Below are positions 3 to 45,886 of a stretch of 64,000 nt of DNA, piece after piece. Within the stretch, counting starts at the first letter, position 1, and each line of letters starts with the position of its first letter. Source of the DNA: Alphaproteobacteria bacterium. Its GTDB lineage: Bacteria; Pseudomonadota; Alphaproteobacteria; MPNO01. The stretch covers positions 768,001-832,000 of the forward strand of contig OZ219866.1 of the NCBI GenBank assembly GCA_964291675.2, in the 5' to 3' direction. A program made the translations under genes and the position numbers. The notes below the pieces were generated by a model. That model made no database searches. It saw only the letters and a program-made list of their open reading frames with translations, and had not been told where the DNA came from.

Positions 3-371
3 AACGCCAGCTCACGCAGCCTGTCCGCGCGGGCGCGGCGCCACGGTGCGGAACAGATCGGGCTCCCCGCCCCGGTGGCGTTCGAGCTCTACTACGGCGC
101 CTTCAAGAGCCGCGAGGGGAGCCGGAACCTCGGCCATCTCGACCGGATGGCGTTCGAGATCGTCCCCTTCGACGCGGCCGACGCGCGCGCGGCCGGCGTG
201 ATCCGCCGCGATCTCGAGGCCAGCGGGATGCCGATCGGCCCCTATGACGTGCTGATCGCCGGCCAGGCCCGGGCGCGGAATTTGGTGCTGGTCACCGCCA
301 ATACGCGCGAATTCGAGCGGGTGGACGGGTTGAAGCTCGAGGATTGGTCGACTCCCATGCCGGATGGTTGA
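3..371 (+). CDS. vapC: PIN-domain VapC-family toxin, 5'-truncated by the window edge
   Basis: Frame is open from the window start. Motifs ELYYGA, PFD..DA..AG.IR..LE..G.PIGPYD.LIAGQA....L.LVTAN.REF.RV.GL.LEDW are typical of VapC. Confidence 0.9.
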   Translation, partial: NASSRSLSARARRHGAEQIGLPAPVAFELYYGAFKSREGSRNLGHLDRMAFEIVPFDAADARAAGVIRRDLEASGMPIGPYDVLIAGQARARNLVLVTANTREFERVDGLKLEDWSTPMPDG

Positions 372-417
372 TCGGCCGTACCCCCGGTCAATTCGACGGG
401 GGGCGCCAACTTGCCGG

Positions 418-446
418 TTGGCCGGGAGGGGGCGAGCGGCGATAAT
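418..446 (+). promoter_or_regulatory. Putative sigma70 promoter of the AhpD/Mo-hydroxylase operon
   Basis: TTGGCC (418-423), 17-nt spacer, GATAAT (441-446); GAGGA RBS before ATG 473. Confidence 0.5.
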
Positions 447-472
447 CCGGGCGCCCACACGAGGATCGCGCC

Positions 473-1117
473 ATGCCCAATATCCGCATGCTCGACATCG
501 ACGAGCTCAAGGCGGGCAAGCTCCGCCCGCTGGTCAACAAGGCGCTGCGCCACCGCGCGCCCGACCCCGCCTTCCACGCCATGCTGGGCCACAGCCCGGA
601 CGTCGCGCGCACGATGTATCTCGCCTGGGGCGCGGTGTTCAACACCGGGCGGATCGACCACAAGCTCAAGGAAATCATCCGCGTCCAGCTCTCGCGGATG
701 GCCGCGTGCCGCTATTGAGGCAATGTCAGGTCTGCTTCGGCGAAGCAGCAGGGACTGACGGAAGAGACCATCGACGAGGGCATCGAATCCCATGCGTCAA
801 GCGACCGCTTCACCCCGGCCGAGAAGGTCGCGCTGCGCTACTCCGAGCTGATGGGGAGCGCGCCGGACAGGGTCGATGCCGCCCTCTACGCGGCGCTCGC
901 GGAGCACTATTCGGTCGAGGAGATCGTCGAGCTCGGCGCCTTCGTCGGCTTCAACGTCGGCTACCACACCTTCTTCGGGACGCTCGACTTCTACCCGATG
1001 TTCACCCCCGACGGTCGGCTTGTCGACCAGGCGGAGTCGCGGCGGATCTACGGCGAGACCCCGGTCTCGCTCAACCGGGGAGCGCTCGCGCGCGCCACCG
1101 GGGAAGCCGCCGAATGA
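473..1117 (+). CDS. AhpD/carboxymuconolactone decarboxylase-like selenoprotein (214 aa, Sec82 in C-R-Y-U)
   Basis: ORFs 473-718 and 851-1117 share a frame and are separated only by TGA 716-718. Read-through (GNVRSASAKQQGLTEETIDEG...RFTPAEK.ALRY) aligns without gaps to the downstream paralogue. A hairpin follows the TGA. Confidence 0.85.
725..759 (+). promoter_or_regulatory. Bacterial SECIS-like hairpin 3' of the UGA
   Basis: GTCAG(725-729)/CTGAC(755-759) lower stem; CTGCTTC(732-738)/GAAGCAG(742-748) upper stem; apical loop GGC starts about 20 nt after the UGA. Confidence 0.7.
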
Positions 1118-1662
1118 GCCTCCGCGGCACGCTCCCGCCGGTGCCTCGCGCGGCGATCGACGACCCGAAGCTCCAGGCGCTGATCGCGCGCTCGGAAGAG
1201 ACCGGCATCGCGGACTCGCGGTTCGTCCGGCTGCTCGCGCATGTGCCGGGCTATGCCGAGGCGCTGCACGACGCGCTCGACCGCTCGCTGATGGAAGGCG
1301 CGGTCGATCACAAGCTCAAGGAGATCGTCCGCGTCCAGCTCGCCCGGCTCGCCGGCGATCCCTACTTTTCCGCCTTCCGCTCGAAGCGGGCGCTGGAGGA
1401 CGGGCTAACCGAGGAGCGGATCGAGGCGGGGAGCGGCGATTTCGAGACTGACGCGCGCTTCACCCCCGCCGAAAAATGGGCGCTCCGCTACGGCTGGCTG
1501 ATGTACCGGGAGCCCGGGAAGGTCGACAAGGCGTTCTACGACGAGGGCAAAGCGCACTACTCCGAAGCCCAGATCGTCGAGCTCGGCGCCTTCATCGCCT
1601 TCCACTACGGCATGCAGATCTTTCTCGGCACCCTGGACCTGCCCGAAGAAGAAGGTGGCTGA
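1114..1662 (+). CDS. AhpD/CMD-like protein lacking the redox CxxC (DPYF instead), 182 aa
   Basis: ATGA overlap with the upstream stop; DHKLKEIVRVQLARLAG, GLTEERI, RFTPAEKWALRY and HYSEAQIVELGAF mirror the upstream gene. Confidence 0.85.
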   Translation: MSLRGTLPPVPRAAIDDPKLQALIARSEETGIADSRFVRLLAHVPGYAEALHDALDRSLMEGAVDHKLKEIVRVQLARLAGDPYFSAFRSKRALEDGLTEERIEAGSGDFETDARFTPAEKWALRYGWLMYREPGKVDKAFYDEGKAHYSEAQIVELGAFIAFHYGMQIFLGTLDLPEEEGG

Positions 1663-3964
1663 GACGCGGGTCGAGGATCCGCCGCTGCTGCGCGGGCGGG
1701 CCCGCTTCGTCGACGACATCCATCTGCCCAAAACCCTGCACGCGGCGTTCCTGCGCAGCCCGCTTGCGCATGCCGGGATTGCGGGCATCGACAAGAGCGC
1801 GGCCGAGGCGGCGCCTTGCGTGCACGCGGTGTGGACGCTCGACGATCTCCGCCCCCATCTCGCCGCCCACCGCCTCGTCGTCGGCCTGCCGAGCCCGTCC
1901 TACCGCCAGCACCGCGACCGGCCGCTGCTCGCCGACGGCGAGGTCGTCCATGTCGGCGAGGCGGTGGCGATGGTCGTTTCCGCCTCGCGCTACGCGGCCG
2001 AGGACGCGGCGACGCTGGTCGATGTCGCCTACGAGCCGCTCCCCGCCGTCGCCGACTGCCGCGACGCGCTGGCGCCGGAGGCGCCGCCCGTCCATCGCGG
2101 CGCCGACCACAACCTGCTCGCCGAGCTCGCCATGGAATTCGGCGACGTCGAGGCGGCGTTTGTCCGCGCGCACCGCATCTTCGCCCTGAATCTCTCCGTC
2201 CATCGCGGCGGCGGCCACTCGATCGAGGGGCGCGGCGCGCTCGCCCGCCACGACCCGGTCGACGACCTTCTGACGCTGTGGAGCTCGACCCAGACGCCGC
2301 ATGCCGGGCGCGACGCGATCGCCCGCATGCTGGGCCGCGGGACCCGCCGCGTCCGCGTCGTCACCCCGGCGGTCGGCGGCGGGTTCGGCCCCAAGCTCGT
2401 GACCTACCCGGAAGAGGTCGCCGTCGCGCTCGCATCCGTGCTGCTCGACCGGCCGGTCAAGTGGATCGAGGACCGGCGCGAGCACTTCGTCGCCAGCACC
2501 CAGGAGCGCGACCAGCACTGGGACATCGAGGCCGCGTTCGACACCGGGGGCCGCATCCTCGGGGTCCGCGGGACCATGCTGCACGATCACGGCGCCTATA
2601 CCGCGCGCGGCGCCAATCTGCCCTACGAGTCGGCGCTTACCGTGACGCTGCCCTACGACGTGCCGGCCTACCGGCTCACGGCCCGGGCGGCGCTCACCAA
2701 CAAGGTGCCGGTCACCCCGGTCCGGGGCGCCGGTCACCCGCAGGCGGTGTTCGCCATGGAACGCCTGCTGGATGCGGCGGCGGACGGGCTCGGCATCGGC
2801 CGCGCGGCGATCCGCGAACGCAACCTGATCGGCCCCGAACGCATGCCCTGCACCCGCCCGCTGGAGACCCGGGGCGGGCGCAAGGTGGTGCTCGACTCGG
2901 GCGACTATCCGGGCTGCATGAAGGCGGCGCTCGATGCCGCGGACTGGGACGGTTTTGCCGCCCGGCGCAAGGCGGCGAAGATGCTCGGGCTCGCGCGCGG
3001 CATCGGGCTTGCCAATTTCGTCAAGGGAACCGGGCGCGGGCCGTTCGAATCGGCCGCCGTCGCCATCGACCCGGCGGGCACGGTGTCGGTCGCTTCCGGC
3101 GCCGCCGCGATGGGCCAGGGGATCGAGACCATGCTCGCCGGCATCGTCGCCGAGACGCTCGGCTGCGACCGCGATCTGGTCAGGGTCACGGCGGGGGATA
3201 CAGGCGCGATCGCGCTCGGCATTGGCGGGTTCAACAGCCGCCAGGCGGTGACCGCGGGGAGCTCGGCCTTCAACGCAGCGCGCCGGGTACGCGACAAGGC
3301 GCTCGCCGTCGCCGCGCATCTCCTGGAGGCGGCGCAGGAGGATCTCGAAATGGCGGGCGGCGAGGTCCGGGTGCGTGGCGCGCCCGATCTCAGCGTCCCA
3401 CTCGGCCGGCTCGCCGAGACCGTGGGGGGCACGCCGGGGGTGACGCTGCCGGCGGGGATCGCGCCCGGGCTCGCGGCGGACGAATACACCGTGCTCGACG
3501 ACATGCCGTTCGCCAATGGCAGCGCGGTCGCGGAGGTGCAGATCGATCGCGAGACCGGGCACGCCGCCATCCATCGGCTCACGGTCGCGCACGATTGCGG
3601 GCGCATCGTGAACCGGGCGATCGTCGAAGGCCAGATCGTGGGCGGCGCGGCGCACGCCGTCGGCAACGCGCTCTATGAGTGGATGGGGTTCGACGACGAC
3701 GCCCAGCCGCTCACCGTGACGCTCGCCGACTACCTGCTGCCGGGTTCGACCGACGTGCCGAGGGTCGCTACGGTGCACATGGAATCGCCGAGCCCGCTCA
3801 ACCCGATCGGGGTCAAGGGGGTCGGCGAATGCGGCACCGTCCCCACCGCCGCCGCCATCGCCGCCGCGATCGAGGATGCGCTCGGCCTGCCCGGCGGCAC
3901 CGTGCAGCGCGTGCCGCTCGCCCCCGCCGACATCGGGAGGCTTGCCCGTGACCATACGCTTTGA
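1655..3964 (+). CDS. Xanthine dehydrogenase/CoxL-family molybdopterin-binding large subunit
   Basis: RVEDPPLLRGRARFVDD, VGGGFGPK, PVRGAGHP, MGQG, GVKGVGE motifs. Confidence 0.92.
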   Translation: MAETRVEDPPLLRGRARFVDDIHLPKTLHAAFLRSPLAHAGIAGIDKSAAEAAPCVHAVWTLDDLRPHLAAHRLVVGLPSPSYRQHRDRPLLADGEVVHVGEAVAMVVSASRYAAEDAATLVDVAYEPLPAVADCRDALAPEAPPVHRGADHNLLAELAMEFGDVEAAFVRAHRIFALNLSVHRGGGHSIEGRGALARHDPVDDLLTLWSSTQTPHAGRDAIARMLGRGTRRVRVVTPAVGGGFGPKLVTYPEEVAVALASVLLDRPVKWIEDRREHFVASTQERDQHWDIEAAFDTGGRILGVRGTMLHDHGAYTARGANLPYESALTVTLPYDVPAYRLTARAALTNKVPVTPVRGAGHPQAVFAMERLLDAAADGLGIGRAAIRERNLIGPERMPCTRPLETRGGRKVVLDSGDYPGCMKAALDAADWDGFAARRKAAKMLGLARGIGLANFVKGTGRGPFESAAVAIDPAGTVSVASGAAAMGQGIETMLAGIVAETLGCDRDLVRVTAGDTGAIALGIGGFNSRQAVTAGSSAFNAARRVRDKALAVAAHLLEAAQEDLEMAGGEVRVRGAPDLSVPLGRLAETVGGTPGVTLPAGIAPGLAADEYTVLDDMPFANGSAVAEVQIDRETGHAAIHRLTVAHDCGRIVNRAIVEGQIVGGAAHAVGNALYEWMGFDDDAQPLTVTLADYLLPGSTDVPRVATVHMESPSPLNPIGVKGVGECGTVPTAAAIAAAIEDALGLPGGTVQRVPLAPADIGRLARDHTL

Positions 3965-4835
3965 GGAGATCGGCGAGCGGCTGCGCGCCTTCCGGCTCGG
4001 CTCGGGGCTGAGCGCCGACGAGATCGCCGCCCGCATCGGCATCTCGCGCACCGCGCTCTACCGCTTCGAGAAAGGCCGGGTGGCGAAGATCGACGCGCTG
4101 GAAAAGCTCGCCGAGCTGCTCGACGTGTCGCTCCCGACCCTGCTCGGCGTCGGCGTCGAATATGTCGGCTCGGCGGTCAGCTTCTTCGAGCGGCTGCGCC
4201 AGATCGAGGCGACGGCGGAACACATCGTCGTGCTGGCGGGCCCGGTCTCCTTCCTGCTGTCGAGCGACGACTTCGTCGACACGCTGGAAGACGTGCTCGG
4301 CGAGAGCATCCCGGATGGCGGCGACGGGCGCGCCCGCGGCCTCGACCAGCTGGGCGAGCTGATGTCCATCCTGCGCCGGCGCAAGGAGACCTATCGCGAG
4401 CGCCGCCCGGGCGTGCTCAACCTGATCTCCGAGGCGGAGATGGGGCGGTTCCTGAGGAATGGCCTGGTCGGCCGCCTCGACCTGCCATCCGCCGTTCGCG
4501 ACGAGCGGCTTGCGCTCGCGCGCCGCGAGGCGCTGCATCTGGTGCGGCTGATGGAGGACGAGCCGATCGGCGTCCAGATCGGCCTCGTCCCCTCGACCCT
4601 GCCGCCGACCAGCTTCCAGATCTTCCGCCAGCCCGGCCGCAGGGTGCTGACGCTGAGCCCGTTCCGCCTCGGCGAGCAGCCCAACATCCACGCCGGGGTG
4701 GCGATGATCACCTCGGCACCCGAGGCGCTGGCGCTGCACGAGAAGACGGCGGAAGATTTGTGGCGCCGTGCCCGCAAGGGCCCGCGGGCGGCCGCCGCCA
4801 TGCGCGACCTGATCTCCCGCCACGCCCCGGGCTGA
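3948..4835 (+). CDS. XRE-family HTH transcriptional regulator with large C-terminal domain
   Basis: GTG 3948 after GGGAGG; IGERLRAFR..SGLS.DEIAARIGISRTALYRFEKG helix-turn-helix. Confidence 0.85.
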   Translation: MTIRFEEIGERLRAFRLGSGLSADEIAARIGISRTALYRFEKGRVAKIDALEKLAELLDVSLPTLLGVGVEYVGSAVSFFERLRQIEATAEHIVVLAGPVSFLLSSDDFVDTLEDVLGESIPDGGDGRARGLDQLGELMSILRRRKETYRERRPGVLNLISEAEMGRFLRNGLVGRLDLPSAVRDERLALARREALHLVRLMEDEPIGVQIGLVPSTLPPTSFQIFRQPGRRVLTLSPFRLGEQPNIHAGVAMITSAPEALALHEKTAEDLWRRARKGPRAAAAMRDLISRHAPG

Positions 4836-4851: not shown

Positions 4852-6162
4852 TCAAAAGCTGTAGACGAGGCTCCCGCCGATAAAGCTGTCGCGCCGCGTG
4901 TCGTGGATGGGGTCGTCGGGGTCGACGGCAAGAAAGACGGTGCCGTCGACCTTGGCGTCCCAGCTGTCCGAGAGGTTGCGCTTGACCTCGAATCCGAGCG
5001 CGTAGGTCTGGTAATCGGCATCGGCGATCAGGCTGGCCACGAGCTGGGTGCCCTCGACGTCGTTGAGGGCGAGGCGGCCGGCGACGAAGATCTCGTTCTG
5101 GAACTGGTCGGGCGAACGGCGCCCGCGCTCGTCGTAGCTCCACTCGGCGAGCACGCTGATATCGGCGTTCGACTCGAATACCCCGCCGAAGGTGTATTCG
5201 AAGCCGGCAACGAAGGCCCGGTAGTCGCGTCCTTTGCCCAACAGGTCGGCCGGAGGATCGGGCAGGGCCGGTGCGCCCTCGCGGTGGATGGCCTCCAGCT
5301 TCAACAGCCACGACTCCAGGGTGAGCTGGGCGTCGAGCCCGAACTGGCGGATCTGCGCGTAGTGCGGCACCAGGCGGTGCGGCACCGGGACGAAGCCGCC
5401 CATCCCGTCCGGCGCGATCCGGAAGGACGGGCGCAGCGACGGTTCGCGGGCGGTGCCGTCGAACAGGCTGAGCCCGAGATCGAGCGGCCCGAAGCTCCGG
5501 CTGAAGCGCGCGGCGAGGTCGACATGCCATTCCTCGGCCGCGCTCTCATAGGTCACCCGGCGCTCGTCCACCGTGAGTCCGCCGCGCAGCCGCCCGCCGG
5601 GCCCGGGCAGGGTGCGCTCGCGGTGCAGCGGCAGCACGAAGAACTCCAGCGTCCCCCACCCCGCCGTCCAGGTCAGATGGGCCATGAGCTGGCCCAGCGC
5701 GATCTCCTCGTTGGGGTGCTCGACCAGGTCGGCCTGGTTGACGATGTTGACCAGATGGTGGAATTCGGTCACCCCCCAGAACACCCGGTCGAAGCCGAGC
5801 CGTGCCTCCCACTCGCCCTCGCCGAGCTCGCCGAAGGCCAGCAGATAGGCCTCGCGCAAATCGGCGTGGGTGCGGTAGGCATCGGCGCTGTCGTAGCGGT
5901 AGAACGGCGTCAGGATGAAGCTCGCCCCGCTCTCGTGGTCGAGATGGAGCGTCGACTGCGCCGTGTAGCCGAGCGTCGCGTCCCGCTGGCCGGGATGCGC
6001 GGCTTCCTCGGGGAACCAGCGCCCTTCGAGCGCAAGCCGTCCGGAGAGCGACATGGCGAGCCCACCGGTATCGGCGGCGGCGGCGGCGGCGAGGACCGCC
6101 CAGGCGACGCCGATGGCAGCGGCGGCGGCGCTGCGGCGGCGGGACCGGCGCGTCAGCGGCAT
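4852..6162 (-). CDS. Secreted/outer-membrane beta-barrel-like hypothetical protein
   Basis: Basic then hydrophobic signal-like N-terminus; DLREAY, VFWGVTE, DIVNQ-like segments; aromatic C-terminus (..LVYSF). Confidence 0.7.
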   Translation of the reverse strand: MPLTRRSRRRSAAAAAIGVAWAVLAAAAAADTGGLAMSLSGRLALEGRWFPEEAAHPGQRDATLGYTAQSTLHLDHESGASFILTPFYRYDSADAYRTHADLREAYLLAFGELGEGEWEARLGFDRVFWGVTEFHHLVNIVNQADLVEHPNEEIALGQLMAHLTWTAGWGTLEFFVLPLHRERTLPGPGGRLRGGLTVDERRVTYESAAEEWHVDLAARFSRSFGPLDLGLSLFDGTAREPSLRPSFRIAPDGMGGFVPVPHRLVPHYAQIRQFGLDAQLTLESWLLKLEAIHREGAPALPDPPADLLGKGRDYRAFVAGFEYTFGGVFESNADISVLAEWSYDERGRRSPDQFQNEIFVAGRLALNDVEGTQLVASLIADADYQTYALGFEVKRNLSDSWDAKVDGTVFLAVDPDDPIHDTRRDSFIGGSLVYSF

Positions 6163-24907: not shown

Positions 24908-25420
24908 TTGGCCGACAGGACCCCCTCTTCCCGAGCGGGCGCGCAGGCGCCGCATCGAGGGACGCCCGCCCTGCCCCGCGACCCCGTCGCCGGCATCCTG
25001 CTGGCGGCGTCGCTGCCGTTGCTGATCGCCGGGCTGGTCATGCCGGCGCTCTCGGTCACCCGCTTCGTGGTGTTCGGCGAGACCTGGTCGATCCTCGACG
25101 GCGTGCTCGCCTTCTGGTCCGACGGGCGCTACGCGCTGTTCGCGCTGGTCTTCCCGTTCTCGGTGGTGCTGCCCCTCGGCAAGGTGGCGATCGGCATCTG
25201 GGCCTGGCTGGCGGCGGCGCCCGGGGGATCGTTGCCCGGCCGGGCTGCGGGCGGCCGGGTCTCGCGCTGGTCGATGCTCGACGTCTGCATCGTGGCGCTA
25301 CTGGTCGTCGCCCTCGAAGGCAGCCTGCTGACCACCGCCGACATCCACGCCGGCCTGGTGGTGTTCGCCATCGGCATCGCCGTCTCGACCGTCGCGACCT
25401 ATCGCCTGGTGCAGCGCTAG
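24908..25420 (+). CDS. Paraquat-inducible protein A (PqiA)-like membrane protein
   Basis: SILDGV..FW..G, FSVVLP.GK, RWSMLDV..VALLV; start uncertain. Confidence 0.8.
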   Translation: MADRTPSSRAGAQAPHRGTPALPRDPVAGILLAASLPLLIAGLVMPALSVTRFVVFGETWSILDGVLAFWSDGRYALFALVFPFSVVLPLGKVAIGIWAWLAAAPGGSLPGRAAGGRVSRWSMLDVCIVALLVVALEGSLLTTADIHAGLVVFAIGIAVSTVATYRLVQR

Positions 25421-27631
25421 CCCGGCCGGGGAGATCGGAACCCGGGCCGACGCCGCCTGCCATCCCATGGCGCGGGCGACGGCGTTCCAGATCGCCGCGG
25501 GCGGCGCGATGGTCGCGCTCTCGCCGACGCCGCGGATGCCGAGCGGGTTGGTGGGAGACGGGGTGTCCTGCTCGACGAGGCACAGGACAGGCGCGCCGTC
25601 GGCGGCCGGCGCGAGATAGTCGGCCAGCGTCAGGGTGAGCGGCTGGCCGTCGGGCGCGAACCTCATCTCCGTCAGCAGCGCGTTGGCGATGCCCTCGACC
25701 GCCCCGCCCGCGACCTGGCCGCGGACGATCGCCGGGTTGAGCGCCCGGCCGATATCGTGGCCGACCGTATAGTCCAGGATCTCGACCGAGCCGGTCTCCG
25801 GATCGACCGCCACCCGCGCCGCATGCACCGAGAAGGCGAGCGTCGCCGGCTCGTCGGCGTGCCAGACGGTCGCCGCTTCGAGCCCCGACCCGCCGTCGAA
25901 CAGCGCCCCGCCCGGGGCGACGGCGCGCGCCGCATCGTCGATCCCGAGCCCGCTGTCGGTCCCGTCGCGCCGCAGGATGCGGCCGGCCGCGATGTCGAGC
26001 GCGGCGGGGTCGTCCTGCAGCAGCCGCGCGGCGATCGCCAGAATCCGCGCGCGCAACGCATTCGCCGCCTCGAAGACCGCGCTGCCCCCCATGATCGCAC
26101 CCCGGCTCGCGAACGCGCCGCGCCCGAAGGGGACAAGCGCCGTGTCGCCGAGCGCGACCGAGACCCTCCCGATATCCGCGCCCAGCGCCTCGGCCGCAAT
26201 CTGGGCGAAGCTCGTCGCCTGTCCCTGCCCCTGCGAGCTCATCCCCGAGGCCACGCGGATTTCGCCCGACGGGTCGATGCGGATGGAGGCCGACTCGAAG
26301 TTGACCACGCCCGAGACATCGACCCCGCCCGCCAGCCCCCAGGCCGTCCGCACCCCGCCGGGCCGCGCCTCGACCGCCTCGTCATATCCGCTTTGCGCCA
26401 GCACCCGGTCCAGAAGCGCGGGGAAGTCGCCGCCGCGAAAGGCGAAATCGGCGCCGCCGAACCCGGTTCCCGTCGCATGGGGCAGGTCGTCCGGGCGCAC
26501 CAGGTTGGCCCGCCTGAGCCGGGCCGCGTCGATGCCGAGCGCGCTTGCGGCGCGGTCGACCAGGGTCTCGATGGCGAGCGCGGCCTCGGGCTGGCCGGCG
26601 CCGCGATAGGTCGCCGCCGGCGTCTTGTTGGTGCCGACCGCCAGCACCTCGACCGAGAAATCGGGGATCCGGTAGGCGCCCGGGATCAGCGCGCCGCACA
26701 GCTCGCCCGTCGCGATACCGCTGGTAAACACGTAGGCCCCGACATCGAGCACCACCCGCGCGCGCAACGCCTCGAAGCGTCCGTCGGCGGCGAGGCCGAG
26801 CTCGAGCGCGACGTCGATGCCGCGCGAATGGGCGGTCGCCAGCATGTTCTCGCGCCGGTCCTCGATCCACTTGACCGGGCGGCCGAGCACGCGGCTCGCC
26901 TCGGCCAGCACGACCTCCTCGCCGTAGCAGCGCGACTTGGCGCCGAATCCGCCGCCCACGTCCTCGCAGACCACCCGGACGGCGCTTTCCGGGAGATCGA
27001 GCAGGGAGGCGAGGTTCTCGCGCACGTTGTAATGCGCCTGGGTGGAGAGCCGGACGGTCAGCCTGCCGCGCGCGCGGTCGAAATCGGCGACGGCGCCGCG
27101 GGTCTCGAGCGGCAGCGGGATCTGCCGCGCGAAGCGGCTCTCGTGGCCGACGCGCCGCGCCGCGCGGGCCAGCGCGCTTGCGGCATCGCCGCGCTCGTAA
27201 GAGAAGCGGGCGGCGACGTTGCCGGTCCAGGAGTCATGGAGCGCCGGTGCGCCCGCTTCCAGCGCCGCCGCGGTCCCGGCGACCGGGTCCAGCGGGCGGT
27301 AGTCGACCTCCACGAGGGCGGCGAGATCCTCCGCCCGGTAGGCGTCGTCGGCGACCACCAGCGCCACCGGCTCGCCGACATAGCGCACCCGCCCGGCTGC
27401 GAGGAAGGGCTGGGTCCCGCCGCGGATCGCCTTGTGCCAGTAGCGCACCACGAAGTCCCGGTCCGCGAAGGGGAGATCGGCGGCGGCGAGCACCAGCCGG
27501 GCGCCGGCCGCCAGCGCCGCCGAGGGATCGATGCCGGCGATCGCGGCGTGCGGGTGCGGGCTGCGGAGGAAGACCCCGTGCAGCATGCGGGGGAGGCCGA
27601 CATCGTCGACGAAGCGCGCCCGGCCGCGCAA
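25298..27631 (-). CDS. Xanthine dehydrogenase/CoxL-family molybdopterin-binding large subunit (both termini atypical)
   Basis: LRGRARFVDD, DVGGGFGAK, TYRGAGQP, QGQG, GAFASR, GIRGVGE. Confidence 0.88.
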   Translation of the reverse strand: MRGRARFVDDVGLPRMLHGVFLRSPHPHAAIAGIDPSAALAAGARLVLAAADLPFADRDFVVRYWHKAIRGGTQPFLAAGRVRYVGEPVALVVADDAYRAEDLAALVEVDYRPLDPVAGTAAALEAGAPALHDSWTGNVAARFSYERGDAASALARAARRVGHESRFARQIPLPLETRGAVADFDRARGRLTVRLSTQAHYNVRENLASLLDLPESAVRVVCEDVGGGFGAKSRCYGEEVVLAEASRVLGRPVKWIEDRRENMLATAHSRGIDVALELGLAADGRFEALRARVVLDVGAYVFTSGIATGELCGALIPGAYRIPDFSVEVLAVGTNKTPAATYRGAGQPEAALAIETLVDRAASALGIDAARLRRANLVRPDDLPHATGTGFGGADFAFRGGDFPALLDRVLAQSGYDEAVEARPGGVRTAWGLAGGVDVSGVVNFESASIRIDPSGEIRVASGMSSQGQGQATSFAQIAAEALGADIGRVSVALGDTALVPFGRGAFASRGAIMGGSAVFEAANALRARILAIAARLLQDDPAALDIAAGRILRRDGTDSGLGIDDAARAVAPGGALFDGGSGLEAATVWHADEPATLAFSVHAARVAVDPETGSVEILDYTVGHDIGRALNPAIVRGQVAGGAVEGIANALLTEMRFAPDGQPLTLTLADYLAPAADGAPVLCLVEQDTPSPTNPLGIRGVGESATIAPPAAIWNAVARAMGWQAASARVPISPAGLALHQAIGRDGRDGDADGEHHQAGVDVGGGQQAAFEGDDQ

Positions 27632-27689
27632 GAGCCGCGCGTCCTCCTTGCGCGCGACCGAGCGGCCGATCGCCGGGGAGGATGCGCCG

Positions 27690-43531: not shown

Positions 43532-45886
43532 ATGACCGTCCGTCCCAACAAGCTGATCGGCGCCCGCGTGCGCCGCCGCGAGGACCCCAAGTTCCTGCGC
43601 GGCCGGGGCCGCTACACGGGCGATGCGCAACCGCCCGGGATGCTGCATGTCGCGTTCTTCCGCAGCGACGTGCCGCACGCCAACATCGTAGACGTCGCTG
43701 TCGATCCCGCCCGCGACGTTCCCGGTGTCGTGGGCGTCTTCACCGCCGAGGACATCTCGCGGCTGGTCCGGCCCATCTCGGTCGAGGTGACCATGCCCGG
43801 CTACCAGGGTTGCGATTATCCGGTTCTCGGGCGCGACAAGGTGTGTTTCGTCGGCCAACCCGTCGCCGCGGTCGTCGCCCGGACGCGCTACGAGGCCGAG
43901 GACGGGGTGGCGGCAATCGCCGCGGAATACGAACCCCTGCCGCCGGTGATCGATGTCGACCGCGCTTCCGAGCCGGGCTCGGCGACGATTCACCCCTCGG
44001 TGCCGGACAATCTCTTCAACCACTTCACGCTCGCGGAAGGAGATGTGGAGGGGGCGTTCGCGCGGGCGGATCGCCTCGTGGAGCTGGAGATCCGGAACGG
44101 CCGCTGCGCCCAGGCGCCGCTGGAGAACCGTATCGTCGTCGCCGAGTGGGACGAGCTCTACGAAGAGCTGACGGTGACGGTCTCCCACCAGGCGCCGCAT
44201 CTCTTCCGCACCGGGCTCGCGGAATTCCTGGATCTTTCCGAATCCCGCATCCGCGTCGTCTCGCCGGATGTCGGGGGCGGGTTCGGCGGCAAGCTCACCG
44301 TCTACCCGGAGGACCTGGCGACCTGCGCGCTGTCGCGAATGGTCGGCAAGCCCGTCTGCTGGAGCTGCGACCGGCGCGAGGACCTGTTGACGACGATGCA
44401 GGGCCGCGAGCAGCTTCACCGGATCGCCGCCGCGGTCGACGACGACGGGCGGGTGCAGGGCGTTCGGGTGACGATCAAGGCCAGCAACGGCGCCTTCCCG
44501 ATCTGGCCGATGTCGGCCGGGCTGGATTCCGGCCAGGCGTCGGAGAACGTGACCGGTCCCTACGACATTTCGAACTACGAGCGCGACGTCTACGCCGTCG
44601 CCACCAACAAGGCGCCGATGGGTCCTTATCGCGGAGTCGGGCGGGTTGCGGCGTGTTTCGCCATCGAGCGCATGATGGACGAGATCGCGCACCTTCTGGA
44701 CCTCGATCCGCTCGAAGTGCGGCGGCGCAACGTGGTGCGCAACTACCCGTACACCACCCCGGCCGGGCTGCGTTTCGAGAGCGGCAGCTCGGCCGAAGCG
44801 CTGGATCAGATGGAGCGGATCCTGGATCTGGCCGCGCTGCGCGAGGAGCACGAGCGCCTGCGCGCGAGCGGGGTTTACCGCGGAGTGGGCTTTGCGGCGA
44901 TAGTCGAGCACACCGCGCTCGGGCCGGACGAGGTCTCCAGGAAGGGCATCGACATGGTGCTGGGGATGGAGTCCGCCTGCGTCCGGGTCGAGCCCGACGG
45001 GACGATCACGGCGATCATGGGCACTCACAGCCAGGGCCAGGGCCACGAAACCACCTTCGCCCAGGTGATCGCCGACGAGTTCGGCATTCCCCTGGAGCGG
45101 GTGAAGGTCCGCTTCGGCGACACCTCCGTGGTGCCCTACGGGCTCGGGACCTGGGCGAGCCGCAGCCTGGTCTATGGCGGCGGCGCGGCCGTGCTGGCGA
45201 GCCGCGACGCGATGGCGAAGGCCGTCCGGATCGCCGCGCACATTCTGAACGTCGAGCCGCTCGCGATGACGTACCGGGACGGCGCCGTCGTGCTCCGCGA
45301 TGACGCTGCTACCGCCATGACGCTCGAGGAGATCGCGCGCATCGCCAACCACCGCGCCAACCGGCTACCCGAAGACATCGATCCCGGTATCGAGGCGACG
45401 CGCCGCTACCGCGCGCCCGATCCGGGAACCTTTTCCAACGCGCTGCACGCCGCCGTGGTCGAAGTCGATCCGCGGACCGGCGCCGTCGACATCCTCCGCT
45501 ACGTCGTGATCGAGGATTGCGGCACGGTGGTCAATCCGACGATCGTCGAGGGCCAGCTGCATGGCGGCATCGCGCAGGGCATCGGCCAAGCGCTCTACGA
45601 GCATGCCGTCTACGACGAAGAAGGCCACCCGCGCGCGGTGACTCTTGCCGACTACGTGATCCCCGCGGCCGGCAGCATGCCGCGGATCGAAATCCATCAC
45701 CGGGAGAGTCCCTCGCCTCGCAGCATCGGCGGGTTCAAGGGCATGGGAGAAGGCGGCGCCGTGAACCCGCCGGCCGCGATCGCCAACGCCGTGACCGATG
45801 CGCTCAGGCCCTTCGGGATCAAGGCGAACCGCACGCCTATCCAGCCGGGCTGGATCGTCGGTGCCGTGACCGCGGCGCAGGCGTAG
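43532..45886 (+). CDS. Xanthine dehydrogenase/CoxL-family molybdopterin-binding large subunit
   Basis: IGARVRRREDP, DVGGGFGGK, PYRGVGR, HSQGQGHET, GTWASRS, FKGMGEGG. Confidence 0.93.
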   Translation: MTVRPNKLIGARVRRREDPKFLRGRGRYTGDAQPPGMLHVAFFRSDVPHANIVDVAVDPARDVPGVVGVFTAEDISRLVRPISVEVTMPGYQGCDYPVLGRDKVCFVGQPVAAVVARTRYEAEDGVAAIAAEYEPLPPVIDVDRASEPGSATIHPSVPDNLFNHFTLAEGDVEGAFARADRLVELEIRNGRCAQAPLENRIVVAEWDELYEELTVTVSHQAPHLFRTGLAEFLDLSESRIRVVSPDVGGGFGGKLTVYPEDLATCALSRMVGKPVCWSCDRREDLLTTMQGREQLHRIAAAVDDDGRVQGVRVTIKASNGAFPIWPMSAGLDSGQASENVTGPYDISNYERDVYAVATNKAPMGPYRGVGRVAACFAIERMMDEIAHLLDLDPLEVRRRNVVRNYPYTTPAGLRFESGSSAEALDQMERILDLAALREEHERLRASGVYRGVGFAAIVEHTALGPDEVSRKGIDMVLGMESACVRVEPDGTITAIMGTHSQGQGHETTFAQVIADEFGIPLERVKVRFGDTSVVPYGLGTWASRSLVYGGGAAVLASRDAMAKAVRIAAHILNVEPLAMTYRDGAVVLRDDAATAMTLEEIARIANHRANRLPEDIDPGIEATRRYRAPDPGTFSNALHAAVVEVDPRTGAVDILRYVVIEDCGTVVNPTIVEGQLHGGIAQGIGQALYEHAVYDEEGHPRAVTLADYVIPAAGSMPRIEIHHRESPSPRSIGGFKGMGEGGAVNPPAAIANAVTDALRPFGIKANRTPIQPGWIVGAVTAAQA

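Follow-up and report, generated by a model that had tools for sequence, protein, structure and literature searches.

The window analyzed here is a stretch of 64,000 nucleotides from an Alphaproteobacteria bacterium (assembly GCA_964291675.2, contig OZ219866.1, positions 768,001 to 832,000 of the forward strand). Near its 5' end lie four overlapping genes (Table 1): a CMD/AhpD-family gene with an in-frame UGA (gene 1), a Cys-less paralogue of it (gene 2), the large subunit of a xanthine-oxidase-family molybdenum (Mo) hydroxylase (gene 3), and an XRE-family regulator (gene 4). The pair formed by genes 1 and 2, rather than the four-gene operon, is the robust unit. The explanation we favor, and consider probable, is that the pair encodes a heterodimeric reductase of one selenocysteine (Sec) subunit and one Cys-less subunit, which is recycled by thioredoxin and was inserted once ahead of a separate Mo-hydroxylase/XRE module.

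Loci of the pair were gathered with a profile of gene 2, which yielded at least 157 among the matches listed (77 from genomes and 80 from metagenomes); the counts of pair loci below refer to these. The two genes are adjacent in 150 of the 150 informative loci, and seven further loci have no upstream DNA. In 148 loci the order is Sec gene first, Cys-less gene second; L109 and L110, which stand outside this count and those for thioredoxin and for the Mo subunit, were inspected separately and conform, with the same order. Among 61 related genomes, the set used for counting gene-1 orthologues and XRE genes, all 16 gene-1 orthologues adjoin a gene-2 match. The pair is present in 2 of 400 other genomes sampled from the class (G193 and G345, with gene 2 beside gene 1 in both) and in 0 of 400 sampled from the phylum. 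Given this rarity, 18 genomes inform the check for a gene 1 that lacks gene 2 beside it.

The in-frame UGA is TGA in all 142 loci that show this codon, with no Cys codon at this position among them, and C79 of the C79-x-x-U82 motif is invariant across the visible loci. The U82 position aligns with the second Cys of the CxxC motif in PA0269 and in the CxxC homologues L206-L210. In the predicted apical hairpin of the selenocysteine insertion sequence (SECIS), all 123 distinct sequences keep five of the six stem pairs and 119 keep the remaining one, the closing pair exchanges among C-G, T-A and T-G, and third codon positions are nearly fixed inside the hairpin and variable in its flanks. When the window sequence is folded alone, the SECIS is not significant (z from -0.6 to -0.9). 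The genome contains selA, selB, selD and tRNA-Sec (selC), all above cut-off. This conservation indicates that the UGA at 716-718 is more than chance; the conserved codon, the SECIS stem and the Sec machinery bear out the first-pass annotation, made from the letters of the window, in calling gene 1 a Sec-containing AhpD. The full-length proteins P0125-P0129, P0131 and P0143 have Trp at the Sec position, which was taken as UGA miscalled by gene callers and not as a Trp variant. Elsewhere in the genome, at G000:C2:1413405-1413974 (-), lies another AhpD-like gene whose C-P-F-U motif includes an in-frame TGA; it is 26% identical to gene 1.

Genes 1 and 2 score 44.2 and 26.6 bits against PF02627, whose gathering cut-off is 23, and are 44% identical to each other. 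At the CxxC/CxxU dyad that characterizes AhpD, gene 1 has C79-x-x-U82 and gene 2 has D82-x-x-F85. The proton-relay His that follows the dyad in AhpD is absent from gene 1, which has V85 and R86 there; R86 is present in 142 of 142 loci, at the place of a His in PA0269, and N161 and H165 are invariant among the loci. In comparison with the AhpD profiles, gene 1 falls below cut-off for both TIGR00778 (16.3 vs 27.8 bits) and TIGR01926 (33.4 vs 81.8 bits), and against the YciW-related (seleno)protein family NF053654 it scores 62.6 bits, with the fusions described below at 94-101, against a curated cut-off of 310. The substrate of gene 1 may be something other than a simple peroxide.

The translation of gene 2 (182 aa) agrees with the earlier remark that it is free of Cys. 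At its dead site, D82 is found in 147 of 148 loci, F85 in 143, R89 in 148 and S90 in 146. Given these residues are fixed, gene 2, as judged from its conservation, is not decaying. Variants of the pair were also seen. L100:7378-9276 and G193:C5:88889-90787 hold a tandem of a Sec gene, a Cys-less gene and a second Sec gene, and L110:8001-8914 represents a distant subfamily with C-D-Y-U-GSQRS, in which a Cys-less paralogue, here shortened and with AGDP, again comes next. The 181-aa protein P0145 has a gene-1 N-terminus and a gene-2 C-terminus, with the crossover in a common KEIIR stretch, and reflects either a deletion or a chimeric assembly.

Genes 1 and 2 are fused in frame in two of the 148 loci (L038 and L079), and seven more fused proteins with differing linkers occur in databases (P0130, P0133-P0137 and P0142); a fusion call for L063 was dropped because its translation meets another TGA at residue 206. 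Such fusions could stem from sequencing errors or from the loss of a stop codon, yet the linkers of P0130 and P0132 are related, and P0134, P0135 and P0142 each represent 11-20 member sequences, both of which speak against it. The L038 fusion was folded from alignment A3, which has only nine rows over the second domain, while alignment A4 was not folded because its gene-2 rows had collapsed onto the gene-1 half. The predicted structure has a predicted local distance difference test score (pLDDT) of 86.6 and a predicted template modeling score (pTM) of 0.86, with a disordered linker. Its top structural match is human Sestrin2 (5cuf), with Z = 23.3 and a root-mean-square deviation of 3.3 over 286 residues covering both domains; Sestrin2 also ranks first in a further structure comparison. 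The obligate adjacency, the natural fusions and this confidently predicted fold lend support to the active/inactive AhpD hetero-oligomer that had been proposed for the two products.

The Sestrin architecture, in which an active and a dead AhpD-like domain form a pseudo-dimer, is found in the model of the natural fusion only. Like the pair, Sestrin2 (5cuf, 5dj4) has one active and one dead AhpD-like half; in the accessible text of PMC4674687, the first half (C-x-Y) is active and the second is without catalytic residues yet conserved. Unlike Sestrin2, the pair is usually two genes, combines Sec with a resolving Cys, shows 10-13% identity to it, and lacks the DDYDY motif of Sestrin in gene 2. The sestrin Pfam family is not among the matches of 27 members, nor is Sestrin2 among the matches of a PDB profile search. 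As modeled, the likeness is one of common architecture, not of family membership or shown descent.

Thioredoxin is the commonest neighbor of the pair among the loci. It lies directly upstream of the pair in 29 of 118 loci, mostly with a CVPC motif, and nowhere else in them. These thioredoxins form a distinct subfamily (CVPC, TGVDRRQVL), at L077:6997-7323 and in 28 further loci, often beside selA, selB or selD; sel genes occur in 17 of the 157 loci. In the mechanism that we propose for the pair, U82 would attack the oxidant, an organic hydroperoxide or a similar small electrophile, C79 would resolve the oxidized U82 to a selenenyl-sulfide, and thioredoxin would re-reduce the latter. The product of gene 2 would complete an AhpD-type 1:1 dimer and shape its single active site.

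Table 1. Features of the four-gene stretch, with window positions, strand and the basis of each assignment.
Feature	Position	Strand	Basis
Inverted repeat GCCAAC-N6-GTTGGC over the -35 hexamer; candidate operator	405..422	.	sequence; partly kept in genus
Sigma-70-like promoter TTGGCC-17-GATAAT (predicted)	418..446	+	1 found vs 0.2 expected
Gene 1, CMD/AhpD-family selenoprotein, 214 aa, C79-R-Y-U82-GNVRS	473..1117	+	ATG 473, stop TGA 1117
In-frame UGA, putatively read as selenocysteine 82	716..718	+	TGA in 142/142 loci
SECIS apical hairpin (predicted), 6-bp stem, loop GGC	733..747	+	123 distinct sequences compared
Gene 2, Cys-less CMD/AhpD paralogue, 182 aa, D82/F85 replacing C79/U82	1114..1662	+	
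Gene 3, xanthine-oxidase-family Mo-hydroxylase large subunit, 769 aa	1655..3964	+	GTG start 1655
Gene 4, XRE-family regulator, 295 aa, HTH_3/HTH_31 domain	3948..4835	+	GTG start 3948

The reading frames and coordinates of the four genes were re-derived as first claimed, with one promoter-like site and three overlaps (1114-1117, 1655-1662 and 3948-3964). Compared by eye, this site, as TTGG[CA]C-17-GATAAT, is found in the 11 other genomes of the genus and not in the three g4/g5 loci inspected. No terminator-like sites were found inside the four-gene stretch. In the contigs of RNA run X1 all bins are covered and pieces span the gene 2/3 and gene 3/4 junctions, although the library may hold DNA and a contig does not establish a transcript. 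From their layout, the four genes likely form a single transcription unit. It is flanked by a VapC/PIN gene on the 5' side (window 3-371, +) and, downstream, by a convergent DUF1302-like gene (4852-6162, -).

Outside the family of the window, a same-strand large subunit directly behind the pair is found in 0 of 120 loci; four loci more than 80% identical were taken as belonging to the same family and excluded from this count. Of 55 long outside loci, six have any large-subunit match at all; these matches are distant or partial and lie upstream or convergent, and the full-length ones fall in other branches of the tree. They were taken as background in genomes rich in Mo enzymes. In G015, a single-contig genome, the pair and the XRE gene are kept around a frameshifted remnant of gene 3, and in G008 an insert of 2.3 kb lies between genes 2 and 3. 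By eye, that insert (L198:6140-8490) encodes HD-domain and nucleotidyltransferase-like proteins and resembles a defence cassette.

Gene 3 matches three xanthine-oxidase-family large-subunit Pfams (PF01315, PF02738 and PF20256), has intact STQ, GGGFGPK, PVRGAGH and KGVGE motifs, with the catalytic Glu in KGxGE, and falls below every NCBIfam equivalog cut-off. Its nearest solved relatives are 7dqx (6-hydroxypseudooxynicotine dehydrogenase), 8uem (CoxL) and 1t3q (quinoline 2-oxidoreductase), with which it shares the domains and the molybdenum cofactor and catalytic motifs. Unlike CoxL, it has the loop PVRGAGH, without the Cu-binding Cys. It does not have AYxCSFR, the loop of Form I aerobic CO dehydrogenase that is visible in the 8uem alignment, and it scores 470 bits against TIGR02416, whose cut-off is 991. 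As for a Se-dependent Mo hydroxylase system, yqeB and yqeC gave 0 matches in this 93.7%-complete genome and gene 3 scores 252 bits against TIGR03311, whose cut-off is 830; a separate XdhC is present in the genome.

The observation that no 2Fe-2S or FAD subunit gene lies in the operon holds more widely, as neither Fer2_2 nor FAD_binding_5 is encoded within about 167 kb on this contig. The genome (4.8 Mb) contains 44 full-length CoxL-like large subunits, with 16 Fer2_2 and 14 FAD_binding_5 matches, and 29 of the 44 are orphans, i.e., have no genes for the 2Fe-2S (S) and FAD (M) subunits within 2.5 kb. Hence, the missing S and M genes at the operon are unremarkable. Two more orphan large subunits lie in the window itself, at 25382-27652 (-) and 43574-45847 (+). 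The best M and S orthologues of this genome (65% and 77%) are at C1:388977-390318. Sharing of M and S among large subunits is published, in the accessible text of PMC4726530, for GAOR2/3 of Sulfolobus tokodaii, which, like gene 3, have a stand-alone large-subunit gene with M and S elsewhere.

The XRE gene has a wider distribution than the pair, being present in 52 of the 61 related genomes vs 16 for the pair. Of 20 XRE loci picked from genomes that lack the pair, all 20 have a pyrD-like gene nearby, nine have a gene-3 orthologue (56-60%) directly upstream, and 0 have AhpD genes. In L216, the gene order is M-S-L-XRE-TPR-pyrK-pyrD, where L is the large subunit and TPR a tetratricopeptide repeat protein; in the genome of the window, TPR-pyrK-pyrD is at C2:2747730-2750892. 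In a tree of large subunits, the clade of gene 3 and the orthologues from its family has the XRE-linked large subunits as its sister (support 0.993); six loci of the genus and three duplicates were left out of this tree. In our proposal, gene 3 would hydroxylate an N-heterocycle in a pyrimidine- or orotate-linked pathway under XRE control, borrowing its 2Fe-2S and FAD subunits in trans, for example those at C1:388977-390318, with C2:2341377-2342694 as a further candidate M/S locus. The pair would have been inserted once before this hydroxylase/XRE module, in the g1/g4/g5 ancestor, and co-transcribed with it since. Given that they occur apart elsewhere, the two modules are likely neighbors rather than one machine.

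Several points weigh against this explanation. The counts of pair loci rest on loci selected by gene 2, among the matches listed. Peroxidase activity of gene 1 is not assured, given its relay His is replaced by R86. The dedicated CVPC thioredoxin was not found in this genome with the queries used, which returned a TrxA-like and one other generic thioredoxin, so that housekeeping TrxA would serve. The folded fusion (L038) comes from another organism, and in the accessible text of PMC4674687 and PMC11429811 any AhpD-like dimer resembles Sestrin. Regarding the two modules, a large subunit with 62% identity is encoded at another place in G015, which may thus retain the activity, and the pair occupies the position held by M and S in L216. 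Moreover, the window and 13 of the 15 relatives that have the pair share the four-gene order, with overlapping start and stop codons, at identities as low as 69%, and selection for co-expression of the four genes is possible. Of the two that deviate, the contig of G011 ends inside gene 3 and G015 lost it. On the sequence comparison, this retention of order is one inherited event, though a long one, and spans three genera.

The kept order and the overlaps also favor a reading in which, in g1/g4/g5, the Sec heterodimer was recruited to the Mo hydroxylase pathway with no physical binding, for a step before or after the hydroxylase such as reductive dehalogenation, or N-oxide or peroxide reduction of a heteroaromatic. 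This would agree with the XRE loci of g2/g3 in family f1, which lack both the pair and the large subunit, with the debrominase Bmp8, which among solved structures is the best sequence relative for both profiles, that of gene 2 (E of 3e-9) and that of the fusions (1e-11), and with heteroaromatic hydroxylases (7dqx, 1t3q) among the solved large subunits nearest gene 3. We nevertheless regard such a recruitment as rather unlikely, since it draws on a single evolutionary event, the Mo link is found in 0 of 120 other loci, gene 3 was deleted in place in G015, the G008 insert splits genes 2 and 3, and the His of Bmp8 is unmatched in gene 1. A bolder combination, which we hold to be doubtful, is a bacterial two-gene seleno-Sestrin-like reductase, made of a Sec subunit whose site is non-canonical (Arg86, His165) and a conserved though dead partner, maybe a deiodinase-like dehalogenase akin to Bmp8, and recruited in this lineage into an operon with a Mo hydroxylase for degrading halogenated or oxidized N-heterocycles.

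The first-pass annotation went further and suggested that the hetero-oligomer may serve the Mo enzyme as a redox partner, a cofactor-maturation factor or a downstream catabolic step. The last of these may hold in this lineage. In the first two, the hetero-oligomer would bind the large subunit, either as an electron acceptor replacing S and M or as a factor maturing its sulfido or selenido ligand. The place of the pair at the M/S position of L216, the lack of nearby S and M genes and the translational overlap are in favor of such binding. Against it, the pair is followed by the Mo subunit in 0 of 120 loci outside the family, is found in 0 of 20 XRE loci, and survives the in-place deletion in G015; most family f3 loci examined have the orthologous large subunit without S and M and without the pair directly upstream; orphans make up 29 of 44 large subunits, with M and S orthologues (65%, 77%) in trans; XdhC is present and yqeB and yqeC were not found; and the Sec lies in a CxxU redox motif. 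A direct role of this kind is not supported and highly improbable. It had been reasoned that the proposal would fall if the AhpD genes occurred independently of each other and of the Mo subunit: the pair and the Mo subunit do each occur apart, but the two AhpD genes were never found apart. Another function for the product of gene 2 would be that of a regulatory or ligand-sensing subunit, as Sesn-C in Sestrin2, tuning the Sec subunit or linking it to XRE. The fixed D82, F85, R89 and S90 of its dead site suit such a role, and, in the accessible text of PMC4674687, the functional Asp406/Asp407 of Sestrin2 are also in a degenerate site. Given no sestrin Pfam match was found and XRE is absent from pair loci outside the family, we consider it improbable, and retain the thioredoxin-recycled heterodimer inserted beside a separate module as the probable explanation.

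The literature has included CxxU CMD/AhpD selenoproteins since 2005, with listings in the accessible text of PMC1088965, PMC2398784 and PMC13188914. The Sargasso Sea and Global Ocean Sampling (GOS) families "CMD domain-containing" or "AhpD-like 2" (pfam02627, CxxU) and "AhpD-like 1" (COG2128) have PF02627, CxxU, and UGA with SECIS in common with gene 1, to which they were matched by domain and motif only; the accessible text mentions no Cys-less partner, fusion or dedicated thioredoxin for them. The accessible text of PMC11429811 describes AhpD dimers of bacteria that are fused and have one domain without Cys. A literature search found no description of a Sec/Cys-less pair, of its fusions or dedicated thioredoxin, or of an AhpD-Mo operon in the text accessible to it. 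This analysis adds the fusions, the association with thioredoxin and the history of the two modules; the kind of selenoprotein was already known.

The nearest solved sequence relatives are Bmp8 (6ohi/6ohj) and the AhpD PA0269 (2ijc, 7xw1), whose CxYC aligns with CxYU. Both carry a His after CxxC, where gene 1 has V85/R86. Bmp8 is a tetrabromopyrrole debrominase with C82 among its catalytic residues.

CxxU CMD/AhpD selenoproteins have been without an assigned function since 2005. Should they function as heterodimers with a Cys-less partner and a specific thioredoxin, the Sec protein might not work when expressed on its own, and the set to be assayed is now defined: genes 1 and 2 or a natural fusion, plus the CVPC thioredoxin. 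The pair would also illustrate clearly how a homodimer can diverge into one active and one dead half that later fuse repeatedly, as has been proposed for Sestrins. Of less weight is the four-gene operon, a juxtaposition in one lineage.

The XRE-pyrK-pyrD-Mo-hydroxylase module is a separate lead. In L216-L235, a conserved unit of XRE, TPR protein, pyrK and pyrD (class 1B) is seen, often behind a Mo large subunit, and it possibly represents an undescribed pyrimidine or N-heterocycle pathway. In the distant L234, a different large subunit again clusters with M, S, XRE and pyrK/pyrD.

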